This document shows positions 16,249 to 52,865 of a stretch of 64,000 nucleotides of DNA, in pieces. The stretch's first letter is position 1; each line of letters opens with the position of its first letter. A program made the translations under genes and the position numbers. Under the pieces are notes generated by a model. That model was given only the letters and a program-made list of their open reading frames with translations. It did not search any database and was not told the origin of the DNA. The stretch comes from Escherichia phage AV115. The stretch lies in sequence record OR352945.1, one strand, 5' to 3'.

Positions 16249-17763
16249 ATGACTGACATTAAAGTACATTTTCATGATTTTAGTCACGTGCGCATTGAAT
16301 GCGACGAAAGTACGTTTTACGAACTTCGTGACTTTTTTAGCTTTGAAGCTGACGGGTATAAATTTAACCCGCGTTACAAATATGGGAACTGGGATGGTAG
16401 AATTCGACTTTTAGATTACAACCGTTTGTTACCATATGGACTTGTAGGACAAATAAAAAAGTTCTGTAGCAATATGAGTTATTCTGTATGGATTGACCCT
16501 AAAATCTTTGAGACCGAAGACCTTACCAGGGAAGATTTTGACGCATGGCTTTCTAAACAAGAAATTTATTCGGGCAACTCCAAAATCGAACCACATTGGT
16601 ATCAAAAAGATGCAGTATATGAAGGACTAGTTAATCGTCGTCGAATTTTAAACCTTCCGACATCAGCAGGTAAATCACTAATCCAAGCACTTTTAGCTCG
16701 GTATTATCTAGAGAACTATGAAGGTAAAATTCTCATTATCGTCCCTACAACAGCATTGACAACCCAGATGGCTAATGATTTTGTTGATTATCGCTTGTTT
16801 AGTCATTCGATGATTAAGAAAATTGGCGGTGGCGCTGATAAAGCAGACAAATCTAAAAACGACGCTCCAATTATTGTTGGCACATGGCAAACGGTAGTTA
16901 AGCAGCCTAAAGAATGGTTCTCTCAGTTCGGTATGATGATGAACGATGAATGCCACTTAGCAACAGGCAAAAGTATTTCTTCAATCATCTCAGGATTAAA
17001 TAATTGCATGTTTAAATTCGGTTTATCTGGCTCATTAAGAGACGGAAAGGCCAATGTAATGCAGTACGTAGGTATGTTCGGCGAAATCTTCCGTCCTGTT
17101 AGCACGTCTAAATTAATGGAAGATGGACAGGTAACTGAGCTTAAGATTAATAGTATTTTCCTTCGTTATCCAGACGAATTCACTGTTAAATTAAAAGGTA
17201 AAACATACCAAGAAGAAGTTAAAATTATTACCGGACTAAAACGTCGTACAAAGTGGATTGCTCAACTTTCAGTCAAATTGGCTAAGAAAGACGAGAACGC
17301 CTTTGTAATGTTTAAACACGTTACACACGGTAAAGAAATATTTGAAGCTATTAAAGAGCTTGGATACGAAAAAGTTTATTACGTATCAGGTGAAGTTGAT
17401 ACCGAAACACGTAACGCGCTTAAAGTCATGGCAGAAAATGGTAAAGGCATTATTATTGTCGCATCATATGGAGTATTCTCTACCGGTATTTCAGTCAAGA
17501 ATCTTCATCATGTTATTTTTGCCCATGGTGTTAAATCAAAAATTATTGTACTTCAAACCGTAGGTCGTGTGCTTCGTAAGCATGGTTCTAAAGCTGTTGC
17601 TACAGTTTGGGATCTCATCGACGATGCAGGTGTAAAACCTAAATCATTAAATACTAAAAAGAAGTATACTCATCTTAATTACTTGTTAAAACACGGTATT
17701 GATCGTATCCAACGTTACGCTGATGAGAAATTTAACTATGTAATGAAAACAATTAATTTATAA
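16249..17763 (+). CDS. uvsW: UvsW DNA/RNA helicase
   Basis: 504 aa; SF2 helicase motifs (DECH, TSAGKS); late promoter at 16212. Confidence 0.95.
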   Translation: MTDIKVHFHDFSHVRIECDESTFYELRDFFSFEADGYKFNPRYKYGNWDGRIRLLDYNRLLPYGLVGQIKKFCSNMSYSVWIDPKIFETEDLTREDFDAWLSKQEIYSGNSKIEPHWYQKDAVYEGLVNRRRILNLPTSAGKSLIQALLARYYLENYEGKILIIVPTTALTTQMANDFVDYRLFSHSMIKKIGGGADKADKSKNDAPIIVGTWQTVVKQPKEWFSQFGMMMNDECHLATGKSISSIISGLNNCMFKFGLSGSLRDGKANVMQYVGMFGEIFRPVSTSKLMEDGQVTELKINSIFLRYPDEFTVKLKGKTYQEEVKIITGLKRRTKWIAQLSVKLAKKDENAFVMFKHVTHGKEIFEAIKELGYEKVYYVSGEVDTETRNALKVMAENGKGIIIVASYGVFSTGISVKNLHHVIFAHGVKSKIIVLQTVGRVLRKHGSKAVATVWDLIDDAGVKPKSLNTKKKYTHLNYLLKHGIDRIQRYADEKFNYVMKTINL

Positions 17764-17777
17764 GGGCTTCGGCCCTT
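17762..17777 (+). terminator. stem-loop after uvsW (UUCG loop)
   Basis: AAGGGC-ttcg-GCCCTT; no strong T-run, may be stability/processing element. Confidence 0.4.
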
Positions 17778-17788
17778 AGGAGATAAAA

Positions 17789-18022
17789 ATGGTACTTGAA
17801 TTTAAACAATTTTTATACGAAGCATCTATTGACGAATTCATGGGTAAAATTGCTAGTTGTCATACCCTAGAAGGGCTTGAAGAATTGGAAGCTTATTATA
17901 AGAAACGTATAAAAGAAACGGAATTAAAAGATACAGATGATATTTCTGTCAGGGATGCCTTAGCAGGTAAGCGTGCCGAACTTGAAGGCGACGATGATGA
18001 GGATGTGGAAGAAGACTTCTAA
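17789..18022 (+). CDS. uvsW.1: UvsW.1 small acidic protein
   Basis: 77 aa, immediately after uvsW with SD AGGAG. Confidence 0.7.
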   Translation: MVLEFKQFLYEASIDEFMGKIASCHTLEGLEELEAYYKKRIKETELKDTDDISVRDALAGKRAELEGDDDEDVEEDF

Positions 18023-18024
18023 TT

Positions 18025-18056
18025 AAAAAAAGGCCCGACCTTTTTGGAAGGGCCAA
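18025..18056. terminator. imperfect hairpin between convergent uvsW.1 and uvsY.-2
   Basis: A7-GGCCC...GGGCC-A5, flanked by A/T runs. Confidence 0.4.
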
Positions 18057-18081: not shown

Positions 18082-18249
18082 CTATAGTAAAAGTTGGGTT
18101 TCGTTCAATTGCTCTTCTGAACTTTCTGAAACCGGCAATTGTTGGACATAATTATAACAAGGACCAGGATGTGCTGGACCTTTGTCTGTTTCAACAACCA
18201 ATGCAGAATCGATTGGAGTTTTACAGACAACACAAATCTTATCTGACAT
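18082..18249 (-). CDS. small Cys-containing protein (uvsY.-2-like)
   Basis: 55 aa ORF absent from ORF track (below 60 aa); strong SD AGGAGG 6 nt before ATG; CxxC...C pattern. Confidence 0.5.
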   Translation of the reverse strand: MSDKICVVCKTPIDSALVVETDKGPAHPGPCYNYVQQLPVSESSEEQLNETQLLL

Positions 18250-18281
18250 GATTGCCTCCTAAGTTGAAATTACATATCTAT

Positions 18282-18506
18282 TTATACAACTCTCATATGC
18301 ATATCAATGCCCATATCTTTAGAATAAAAATATTCATCAAGATATCCGGCAAATTTTCCTTTAATATAAAGGACGTCTTCGCCACAAGGATGGTCTGCCA
18401 GGATACGAATATCCTGACGACGTAGACGATACTTTTCCATTAAGAATTTAATTTCAGTTTCAAATTCTTCGTCATTATTAAAGGCATCTTCAATTGAATA
18501 ACGCAT
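18282..18506 (-). CDS. hypothetical protein (uvsY.-1-like)
   Basis: 74 aa ORF directly downstream of uvsY, start overlaps uvsY stop. Confidence 0.55.
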   Translation of the reverse strand: MRYSIEDAFNNDEEFETEIKFLMEKYRLRRQDIRILADHPCGEDVLYIKGKFAGYLDEYFYSKDMGIDMHMRVV

Positions 18507-18919
18507 TATTGCCCCGCTTCAAATTCTCGCATATCCTGGATATGTTTAAGTGCAAAACTACGAGACTTAACTGCGTCAAGTGCACCACTACAGAACTCAA
18601 GTAAAATTCCCCAGTATTGTAAAGTAGTCTCTATTTTAAGCACATCTTTATCTGCAGCCAGGACAGTTTTCATTTCAGATTTCTCGTATCGGTCCATACT
18701 GAATTCATCACCGTCACCTCGTCCCGAGTAGTAGTCTAATCTTGCTTTTAGAGCAGTTTTCTTCTGAGTCTCTATACGCAACATTTCTTTACGAATAAAT
18801 GAGTGCTTACGTAGCCATTTGCTGTATAACTTAACATTATTCGCCGTCTCGTATTGCAACTTTGTCGTATCAATAGCTAAGTCTGCGTCTAACTCTTCCT
18901 GTAAATCTTCCAGCTTCAT
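18506..18919 (-). CDS. uvsY: recombination mediator UvsY
   Basis: 137 aa, T4 UvsY length; MotA-type middle promoter upstream. Confidence 0.9.
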   Translation of the reverse strand: MKLEDLQEELDADLAIDTTKLQYETANNVKLYSKWLRKHSFIRKEMLRIETQKKTALKARLDYYSGRGDGDEFSMDRYEKSEMKTVLAADKDVLKIETTLQYWGILLEFCSGALDAVKSRSFALKHIQDMREFEAGQ

Positions 18920-50183: not shown

Positions 50184-51083
50184 TTATAGACCAGCTAACA
50201 GGTCATCGAGGTCACCATCGTCAGAAGACGAGGAACTCATGAAGTCATCTTCAGTTTTTGCAGAACCAAAGGCTTCCATGTCTTTATCAAAATCGTCAAG
50301 GTCAGAAGCAACTTTATCTGCAACAGAAGCTGCTGCGGCTGCTGCACCACCAAGAGCGGCAGTACCAAGAACTTGATTAAATTTAGTATTCAATTCTTCA
50401 AACGATTTGAACTTATCTTTAGAAGTCATTTCAGAAAGGTCGACCATTTGTTCGAACAATTCTTTCTGGAAAGATTCATCATCAATGTTTGGAATCGCAG
50501 ATTGATTCAGGAATTTAGATTCGTCGTAGTTACTGAAACCAGAAACCTGTTTAACTTTCAGCACAAAGTTAGCACCTTCCCACGGGCAAGTTACATCAAC
50601 AGGAGTTTCACCCATTTCAGTATCGACTGCAATCATTGCATTGATTTTGTCCCAAATCTTTTTACCGAAACGATATTTGAATACTTTACCTTCATTATCT
50701 GGAGCTTGAGGGTCTTTAACAACCAGAATATTAGCCCAATAAGAAGTTTTACGTTTCAGTTGAGAATATTCAGTTTTGTTGGTATTGTACAGGTCATTTT
50801 TACTAATGTACTGACATACAGGACAAGAGTCATAATCGCCGTGTGTAGATGAACAGGTTTCAATATACCATTTACCATTTTTCTTGAACCCGTGGTTAAC
50901 AAGAATTGTAAACGGAAGTGCGTCATCTGTTTTTGCCGGCAGGAAACGAATTACCGCTTGACCATTACCGGATGCATCGAGTTTCAGCTTCCATTCACCT
51001 TTATCTTCTGAAGAGAAACCTTTGTTACCATTCAGTTTAGCCATCTGAGCTGCGAGGTCTGCGGTACTTTTACGTTTAAACAT
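50184..51083 (-). CDS. 32: single-stranded DNA-binding protein
   Basis: 299 aa; near-identical to T4 gp32 (zinc site, acidic C-terminal tail). Confidence 0.97.
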
Positions 51084-51854: not shown

Positions 51855-52530
51855 AGTTCCATCCAGGCCATTTTGAAGATTTAAGTCTATATGTAACTAA
51901 AGACGCAGAAATATTAAAAACATTTGAAACTTCTTTACACGAGGCGTATTTTACACCATCAATAATTATAGGTTTTTGTTTTTTAATAGTTCTTTCTTTA
52001 GAATGCGGCTTTGAATTTGCTATTCTAAGAGCTTCTTTGGTTGAATCAGGCATCGGCTTATTCGTTTTTCGCCCTTTTCGGACTTTACTCAAGGCCAATT
52101 TGTGAGCTTCAGATAGTTTCTTACCCTTATTAGGTGACGGTATTTTTCTTTCTAGTCTTGTTTTAGATACTTTAGCCTTAGTCTCTTCAGATCTAGGTTT
52201 ACCTAATTTAGAAAGTGAAATAGACCTTTTAGCTTCATCACTTTGTTTTTTACCAGGACCACCTTTACCACCGGGAACTAAGTTATAAGTATCATCTCGC
52301 AAAACAAAATCTTCATTAACCAATTCTGCTTCTTTTTTATAGGCGTCCTTGTCATTATCATATTCATAAAGAATTTCGGTATAAAAATTTTTTAGTCCAT
52401 ATTTAGCTTTGGCCGCTAATATAGCGCGGCCTGATCCAATATACCAATCTTTCTCTTTATGTTTTTTGTGTACGCCTATATAAATTTTACCATTTATTTT
52501 ATTGGTAGTTTTATACACAACGTATTTCAT
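51847..52530 (-). CDS. GIY-YIG homing endonuclease (Seg-like)
   Basis: 227 aa; VYKTTNKINGKIYIG motif, K-rich C-terminal half; ATG overlaps gene 33 stop (ATGA), 3' end overlaps gene 59 start. Confidence 0.8.
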   Translation of the reverse strand: MKYVVYKTTNKINGKIYIGVHKKHKEKDWYIGSGRAILAAKAKYGLKNFYTEILYEYDNDKDAYKKEAELVNEDFVLRDDTYNLVPGGKGGPGKKQSDEAKRSISLSKLGKPRSEETKAKVSKTRLERKIPSPNKGKKLSEAHKLALSKVRKGRKTNKPMPDSTKEALRIANSKPHSKERTIKKQKPIIIDGVKYASCKEVSNVFNISASLVTYRLKSSKWPGWNYD

Positions 52531-52865
52531 AATAAGAAATCTAGCGTATTAGTTTTTTCACCACGAGCAACTGATGGGCGAAGCATGTTTTCGTCAATTG
52601 CTTCGCTTGTAATTTTTTCAACAATTCCTGTAGGAATAAATTTAGCAAATTGTGTTTCTGGAATAGAATTTTCTTCCAAGAAAGCAGTTGTTGCTTCTAA
52701 ATAAGACATACCAAATTGTTCAACCATGGATTCGATAATGAATCCGTTTTCTTGACGGTCAAGCAATTTAGCGATATCATCTTTATCGTGTTTTACTGCT
52801 AATTCTTGTTCAGATAAACCGGCCTCATCAACCGGTTTAATATCACTTAGTGAAAACTGTGTCAT
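52527..52865 (-). CDS. 33: late transcription accessory protein
   Basis: 112 aa; T4 gp33 length and position. Confidence 0.9.
   Translation of the reverse strand: MTQFSLSDIKPVDEAGLSEQELAVKHDKDDIAKLLDRQENGFIIESMVEQFGMSYLEATTAFLEENSIPETQFAKFIPTGIVEKITSEAIDENMLRPSVARGEKTNTLDFLL

Follow-up and report, generated by a model that had tools for sequence, protein, structure and literature searches.

The uvsY.-2 gene of a T4-like coliphage: a conserved DUF2685 gene with a predicted CCHC zinc site and an acidic C-terminal tail

The uvsY transcription unit of Escherichia phage AV115 closes with a gene of 55 codons that by position and by sequence is the orthologue of T4 uvsY.-2 and a member of the DUF2685 family. 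It was investigated in the context of a 64,000-nt stretch of sequence record OR352945.1, here called the window, to which all coordinates refer unless another record is named. That this is a real, translated and conserved gene closing the uvsY unit can be taken as established, or very nearly so. The explanation that best accounts for the observations overall, in which our confidence and our doubt are about equal, is that it is uvsY.-2 of a Mosigvirus T4-like coliphage and that its product would be a CCHC finger with a docking tail. The gene is already known and annotated, as uvsY.-2 and as DUF2685, and is not new. What is added here is a predicted four-ligand CCHC site, a treble-clef model, a tail motif with Glu42, a counted synteny and a candidate late promoter. 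These additions were not found stated in the literature searched, in which two papers mention uvsY.-2 and none DUF2685.

The gene and its transcription unit

The features of the locus are as follows.

16249-17763, convergent with uvsY.-2: uvsW, 504 aa (ORF list)
17789-18022, plus strand, convergent: uvsW.1, 77 aa (Pfam UvsW-1, E 1.6e-26)
18025-18054, minus strand: intrinsic terminator, a hairpin GGCCC..GGGCC at 18032-18054 and then U7 at 18025-18031 (RNA fold)
18082-18249, minus strand: uvsY.-2 coding sequence, DUF2685 family, 55 codons and a TAG stop (18082-18084)
18255-18260, minus strand: Shine-Dalgarno sequence AGGAGG, read from the sequence, with a CAATC spacer to the ATG
18279-18286, minus strand: match to the T4 late-promoter consensus TATAAATA, starting at -37 and ending 29 nt before the uvsY.-2 ATG
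18282-18506, minus strand: uvsY.-1, 74 aa (ORF list; phrog_1541, no Pfam family)
18506-18919, minus strand: uvsY (ORF list; annotation in relatives)

Read from ATG to TAG on the minus strand, 18082-18249 translates as MSDKICVVCKTPIDSALVVETDKGPAHPGPCYNYVQQLPVSESSEEQLNETQLLL. A preliminary description of this DNA had proposed an ORF of 55 aa with an ATG here, and the translation confirms it. The strong Shine-Dalgarno sequence of that description is present as AGGAGG, but its spacer has 5 nt and not 6. The ORF had also been called unlisted. It is indeed absent from the earlier reader's ORF track; its coding sequence is, however, annotated in Escherichia phage AV114 (as WPK34923), in T4 and in Shigella phage JK45, and it is therefore unlisted only in a track that was filtered by size. 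The proposed placement between uvsW.1 and uvsY.-1 is borne out by the ORFs and their family matches.

The proposed correspondence to T4 uvsY.-2 also holds. The T4 protein (NP_049797, UniProt Q00778, 114496-114663) has the same length of 55 aa, occupies the same slot and is 92.7% identical; the four differences from T4 are A26V, V35I, Q36K and Q37E, all of them outside the conserved positions. The protein of phage JK45 is identical and carries the label 'uvsY.-2 gene product'. In a Pfam scan the ORF matches PF10886 (DUF2685) with 109.4 bits against a cut-off of 25 (E 9.9e-32), residues 3-55 aligning to model positions 1-55 of 55, above the gathering threshold; at E values up to 1 the scan returned only one chance match besides DUF2685. 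There is a match to phrog_1043 (E 7.5e-30), and NCBIfam holds no matching family. The 1.25-kb neighbourhood is 99.8% identical to that of phage AV114 (Straboviridae, Tevenvirinae, Mosigvirus) and 80-90% identical in about 500 T4-type genomes.

That uvsY.-2 closes the uvsY transcription unit as its last cistron, with a strong ribosome binding site and an intrinsic terminator, is likewise shown or nearly certain. The locus was compared with 44 related loci, of which 43 are IMG/VR contigs and the other, filed as a 'bacterium' bin, is a T4-like contig of 167 kb; 41 of them have an SD-like motif at the corresponding place. A GC hairpin with a T-run lies at the position of the terminator in T4, JS98, Kpn6N, Serratia 92A1, Aeromonas SW69-9 and Makalu_002, and a run of five or more T follows uvsY.-2 in 39/44 loci. 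On the plus strand the hairpin at 18025-18054 is followed by AAAAACC; the U-run is on the minus strand alone, and the element therefore seems to terminate in one direction only, that of the uvsY unit. The consensus terminator scan missed this hairpin because its stem has an internal loop, and scanning of the locus for sigma-70 and terminator consensus sequences was uninformative.

The late-promoter match overlaps the TAA stop of uvsY.-1. Exact copies of TATAAATA number 18 in the window, against 7.3 expected. The motif is found upstream of uvsY.-2 in T4 and also in Acinetobacter phage Morttis, there in an unrelated sequence context; across the related loci the exact TATAAATA precedes uvsY.-2 in 13/44 and NATAAATA in 32/44. 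Because it recurs upstream of the gene in T4, in Morttis and in some of the related loci, the motif is a plausible candidate for an autonomous late promoter of this last cistron. Such a promoter would fit the 'late' class that has been assigned to the T4 protein.

On the convergent side, the T4 record NC_000866 (112677-114440) gives uvsW as a single CDS of 1764 nt with a note on sequence discrepancies, unlike the window (16249-18022) and most relatives, where there is a uvsW of 504 aa and a separate uvsW.1 of 77 aa. Between the uvsW stop and the SD of uvsW.1 (AGGAG), on the plus strand at 17761-17778, is a C(UUCG)G tetraloop hairpin, AAGGGC-UUCG-GCCCUU, with a minimum free energy of -11.5 kcal/mol and a z of -2.5. 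Very stable intercistronic UUCG hairpins were first described in T4.

Coding evidence, gene order and distribution

Is such a short ORF a protein gene? The alternatives are a chance ORF and a non-coding element, for example a small RNA or a terminator region. In the AT-rich window ORFs of 30-80 codons are frequent, and the length of this one is under the usual size cut-offs. Against T4, however, there are 14 synonymous and only 4 non-synonymous differences (dN/dS 0.06); the dN/dS is 0.125 against JS98 and 0.20 against Klebsiella phage Kpn6N, and the third codon position dominates the changes in each of these pairwise comparisons. The Cys and His residues that are the predicted metal ligands are kept at identities down to about 31-35%, and Rfam has no significant RNA family at the locus (best E 0.78). 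Proteomics, which the preliminary description had named as a check, agrees: the T4 protein has been seen by mass spectrometry, in a table where NA marks undetected proteins and uvsY.-2 has a class, its protein being 'late' and its transcript 'middle' (PMC9697503 Table S2). The alternative of a chance or non-coding ORF is thus refuted, the probability left to it being next to nil, and the uvsY.-2 ORF is certain to be coding.

Knock-down of the gene has a measured cost in T4. In a pooled CRISPRi-ART screen uvsY.-2 was classed only as 'Semi-Fit' (K-S p 0.12), and a single-guide knock-down gave smaller plaques and lowered the plating efficiency about 2-fold; complementation in trans rescued the knock-down (PMC11879866). 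Downstream polarity cannot explain the phenotype, because uvsY.-2 is the last cistron before the terminator. Few T4 genes of unknown function have a fitness effect that was both measured and complemented, and uvsY.-2 belongs to these few (PMC11879866).

Homologues with 100-41% identity were found by tblastn in about 1250 phage records, which is about as many T4-like phage records as those with UvsY (1378), and the hosts of these phages include Escherichia, Klebsiella, Acinetobacter, Aeromonas and Vibrio. When one genome per species was scanned for 185,579 bacterial and archaeal species, the single match was a 167-kb T4-like contig (CAVJPU010000002.1). Within the limits of this pattern-based scan, the DUF2685 family is phage-specific. 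A partial 'DUF2685 domain-containing protein [Enterococcus faecalis]' (P0003) has C31R, a change at a predicted zinc ligand. The T4-like sequences under bacterial labels, P0003 and CAVJPU010000002.1, are probably the result of contamination or mis-binning.

The gene order around uvsY.-2 is highly conserved. Of the 44 related loci, 43 have uvsW convergent downstream, 41 have uvsY upstream, 41 contain gene 25 and 38 contain uvsW.1; uvsY.-2 thus lies downstream of uvsY (or gene 25) and is convergent with uvsW.1 and uvsW. The same order as in the window is found in T4, JS98, Kpn6N, Serratia 92A1, Aeromonas SW69-9, Makalu_002 and Pm5461. In JS98, Kpn6N, Serratia 92A1, the Krischvirus Makalu_002 and Aeromonas SW69-9 uvsY is directly followed by uvsY.-2, while in Acinetobacter phages gene 25 comes before uvsY.-2 and uvsY is not adjacent. 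Found in only 10/44 loci, uvsY.-1 is an accessory insert between uvsY and uvsY.-2, and it was 'Not Fit' in the CRISPRi-ART screen (PMC11879866). This conserved order may reflect vertical inheritance rather than functional coupling.

Some loci depart from the common arrangement. A longer ORF, of 123-126 aa, has the DUF2685 module as its C-terminal half in Shigella phage vB_SdyM_006 and in the Proteus phages of Bragavirus, so the module tolerates an N-terminal fusion in Bragavirus. The fusion is in frame, and the resulting ORF comes immediately behind uvsY, as in Proteus phage vB_PmiM_Pm5461 (NC_028762; positions 1501-1881 of locus L012). Its N-terminal domain has 72 aa and belongs to phrog_26998; it matched no Pfam family and has no similarity to uvsY.-1, and the fusion is therefore no evidence for joint action of uvsY.-1 and uvsY.-2. 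In IMGVR_UViG_2974742932_000001 (locus L014, 4481-5173) an insert of about 700 nt between uvsW and uvsW.1 encodes a 230-aa HNH-type homing-endonuclease-like ORF. Locus L015 has a gap of the same size between these two genes, and that of L041 is smaller, at about 360 nt. The KVP40-like Vibrio phage D527 (locus L002, 2412-2825) has a gene annotated 'tRNA amidotransferase' and a 66-aa hypothetical gene between uvsY and its uvsY.-2 homologue, and a 35-aa ORF between that homologue and uvsW.

The predicted zinc site and the acidic tail

A profile search of 1.84 billion representative proteins gave 65 clusters, nearly all with lengths of 51-67 aa. The alignment used here consists of 60 representatives that share no more than 50% identity with each other and 31-78% with the query; two apparently spurious matches were left out, the repetitive P0063 of 1774 aa and P0072, which has 172 aa and three repeats. 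The parts of the protein to which the alignment and the model point are encoded as follows.

18139-18240, minus strand: predicted zinc module, residues 4-37
18232-18234, 18223-18225, 18169-18171 and 18157-18159, minus strand: codons of the predicted ligands C6, C9, H27 and C31, respectively
18085-18138, minus strand: acidic tail, residues 38-55, predicted disordered (pLDDT 58-68, without secondary structure)
18085-18108, minus strand: terminal motif L48-x-E50-[TVI]-[QE]-L53-L54-hydrophobic

Four residues are invariant in 60/60 sequences: C6, C9, C31 and E42. H27 is found in 57/60; of the other three sequences, two have Cys in its place (GVVCSSVC and GMVCQGQC) and the third is truncated and error-ridden. 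Exchange of His for Cys in this column is typical of a metal ligand, which argues for a four-ligand CCHC site and not a three-Cys site, and the predicted pattern is C-x2-C-x17-[H/C]-x3-C. Other conserved columns are K10 (59/60), G29 (58/60) and G24 (55/60). The uvsY.-2 ORF of AV115 has C6, C9, H27, C31, E42, L48, E50, L53 and L54, as does the family consensus.

AlphaFold2, run with the family alignment, gave a model with a mean pLDDT of 80.5. In blocks of 10 residues the mean is 84-91 over residues 1-40 and falls to 58 and 68 over residues 41-55. Beta bridges surround the CxxC, a hairpin spans 19-26 and the only helix of the model spans 30-37; H27 comes immediately before this helix and C31 is in its first turn. 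These are the characteristics of a treble clef, with the CxxC knuckle in a beta-hairpin and two ligands at the start of a helix that follows a second hairpin. From this model, which contains no zinc, we infer a treble clef rather than a classical zinc ribbon. Taking the alignment and the model together, one zinc is very probably held by C6, C9, H27 and C31 of UvsY.-2, within a treble-clef fold.

Of what the preliminary description had said about the protein, then, the most part stands. Its three cysteines are C6, C9 and C31, and they are conserved among the divergent relatives, a point that it had proposed to check, although its CxxC...C pattern lacks the fourth ligand, H27 (or Cys, in two sequences). 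Its small metal-binding or zinc-ribbon-like protein agrees with the predictions, and the structure prediction that it had put forward as a check gives a confident model, with the refinement that the predicted fold is a treble clef and not a classical, two-knuckle ribbon.

Comparison of the model with known structures gave matches that are weak. The nearest structural neighbours are eL24, YacG and the FCS, HIT and MYND fingers; the best Foldseek E value against the PDB is 0.39, and scores in the twilight zone are expected for a domain of 35 residues. Foldseek against BFVD matched only uncharacterised members of the DUF2685 family. A sequence profile search of the PDB found nothing significant, only two chance matches at E 0.2 or worse.

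The second part of the protein, a third of its length, is its tail. Conservation there is marked: besides the invariant E42 (60/60), which is accompanied by S43, L48 is present in 45/60, E50 in 46/60, and L53 and L54 in 50/60 each. The tail changes little between phages of Escherichia, Klebsiella, Acinetobacter, Aeromonas and Vibrio. Disorder is predicted for it, and it nevertheless keeps an invariant Glu and a conserved terminus, which is the signature of a short linear docking motif.

Possible functions and comparison with known systems

How might such a protein act? In the mechanism that we propose, UvsY.-2 would be a 6-kDa single-domain CCHC zinc finger in which C6 and C9 form the zinc knuckle, and H27 and C31, at the start of the helix, complete the treble-clef site. 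The zinc module would present a rigid docking surface to a partner, and the tail would fold on binding into a pocket of that partner. The protein would have no enzymatic activity and would be a small protein-binding adaptor or inhibitor. There are precedents for a tail of this kind. YacG is a treble-clef finger whose C-terminal tail is unstructured until gyrase is bound (PMC4083091), and gp43, gp55 and gp33 of T4 have 'hydrophobic and acidic C-termini' on unstructured linkers (PMC2988020). The acidic composition of the protein and the N-terminal fusion that its module tolerates in Bragavirus phages also speak for protein docking. On these grounds UvsY.-2 may have no catalytic role and act by binding another protein, as adaptor or inhibitor, a view to which we give slightly less than even weight.

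What might the partner be? The tail is near-constant across distant hosts and the gene is kept between uvsY and uvsW (41-43/44 loci); the likeliest partner would therefore be either a host protein that is highly conserved or a conserved protein of phage DNA metabolism. It is conceivable, if unlikely, that UvsY.-2 is a small, hitherto unrecognised regulator of T4-type DNA metabolism, a CCHC finger with its tail docked on a hub protein, for which the candidates would be the gp45 clamp pocket that serves gp43, gp55 and gp33, or UvsW, UvsX, gp32 or a topoisomerase. If this were true, the balance of replication, recombination and late transcription would be tuned in mid-to-late infection.

UvsY.-2 might instead be a nucleic-acid-binding finger, either of RNA, like eL24 and some FCS fingers, or of DNA, regulating translation, transcription or the oriF/uvsY region. 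The composition of the protein is against this. Its pI is 4.3, and it has 8 acidic residues against 3 basic ones (3 Lys, no Arg), which argues against nucleic-acid binding; K10 is the sole conserved basic residue, and the most conserved features apart from the ligands are acidic or hydrophobic (E42, E50, L53 and L54). We therefore regard a nucleic-acid-binding role as unlikely. A metal-handling, TRASH-like domain, serving as a metallochaperone or metal sensor and not holding a structural zinc, would be consistent with the ligand pattern, which is its one point of support, and is far less probable still.

Tests of the TRASH clan (CL0175, with zf-FCS, YacG/DUF329, L24e, MYND and HIT) gave nothing significant by sequence with Pfam, hhalign or the PDB profile search. 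UvsY.-2 lacks the 'FCS' signature and does not significantly resemble the FCS, MYND and HIT fingers or eL24/Rlp24, either by sequence or by profile, and whereas eL24 is basic and binds rRNA, UvsY.-2 is acidic.

The inhibitor might be host-directed, acting in anti-defence or on a host enzyme such as gyrase in the fashion of YacG, and not in phage DNA metabolism. Anti-defence functions may be found among the unknown Semi-Fit genes, in the view of the authors of the CRISPRi-ART study (PMC11879866). The family is restricted to phages, and its predicted architecture recalls that of YacG, a treble clef with the ligands in the same register and a C-terminal tail that is disordered. However, the transcript is middle, the protein is late and a late-promoter motif precedes the gene, and anti-defence genes are expected to be early more often. 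Likewise, a tail that varies so little between hosts as far apart as Vibrio and Acinetobacter speaks against a defence target specific to particular strains, and the phenotype appears in a laboratory E. coli host. A target in the host is accordingly given a low probability. The preferred reading of a CCHC finger with a docking tail provides four ligands, Glu42 and a C-terminal motif, which make a 'hypothetical protein' testable by point mutants and pull-down. The gene is of modest interest and will not surprise a specialist; yet it is a good small target, having both a complemented phenotype and mutational handles.

The closest known system is uvsY.-2 of T4 itself, with its 55 aa, its slot between uvsY.-1 and uvsW.1 and the same layout of SD, late-promoter motif and terminator. 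For the tail, comparison can be made with gp43, gp55 and gp33, which similarly have a short hydrophobic and acidic segment near the C-terminus and an unstructured linker (PMC2988020). The clamp-binding ends are SLDFLFG in T4 gp43, SLDFLYEAND in T4 gp55 and TLDFLL in gp33 of the window. The last of these comes from a 112-aa ORF at 52527-52865 on the minus strand that ends in ...TNTLDFLL, and that was assigned as gp33 by its length and tail and not by homology search. Aligned from the C-terminus, the ETQLLL of UvsY.-2 and the TLDFLL of gp33 have L and L at -1, L and L at -2, L and F at -3, Q or E and D at -4, and T, V or I and L at -5. The core of the gp45 clamp epitope, [ST]-L-D-F-L-[FYL], is absent from the end of UvsY.-2 (...NETQLLL), and the clamp is a lead of low probability. 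The E. coli beta-clamp motif is QL[SD]LF; the Gln position is Glu in 17/60 sequences and the motif is one residue short in UvsY.-2, and this candidate was rejected. The gp32 of the window (299 aa, 50184-51083, minus strand), which was also compared with the uvsY.-2 tail, has the acidic-hydrophobic end ...DLDDLLAGL.

YacG, the E. coli gyrase inhibitor (PF03884, formerly DUF329, TRASH clan), was considered as a lead for UvsY.-2 and tested. The UvsY.-2 ORF has no match to the YacG model, for which the E. coli YacG control scores 85.8 bits. With hhalign the ligands are placed in register at a probability of only 3.4%, and homology was set aside in favour of analogy. The third ligand is Cys in YacG and His in UvsY.-2, and the tail motif of UvsY.-2 is unrelated to the YacG tail. 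YacG docks gyrase through Trp40, which is invariant in YacG, and Trp59 (PMC4083091), whereas UvsY.-2 has no Trp. These differences count against the YacG version of a host-directed inhibitor in particular. By analogy, then, UvsY.-2 may work like YacG, with a finger and a tail that folds on its partner, but it is not a YacG.
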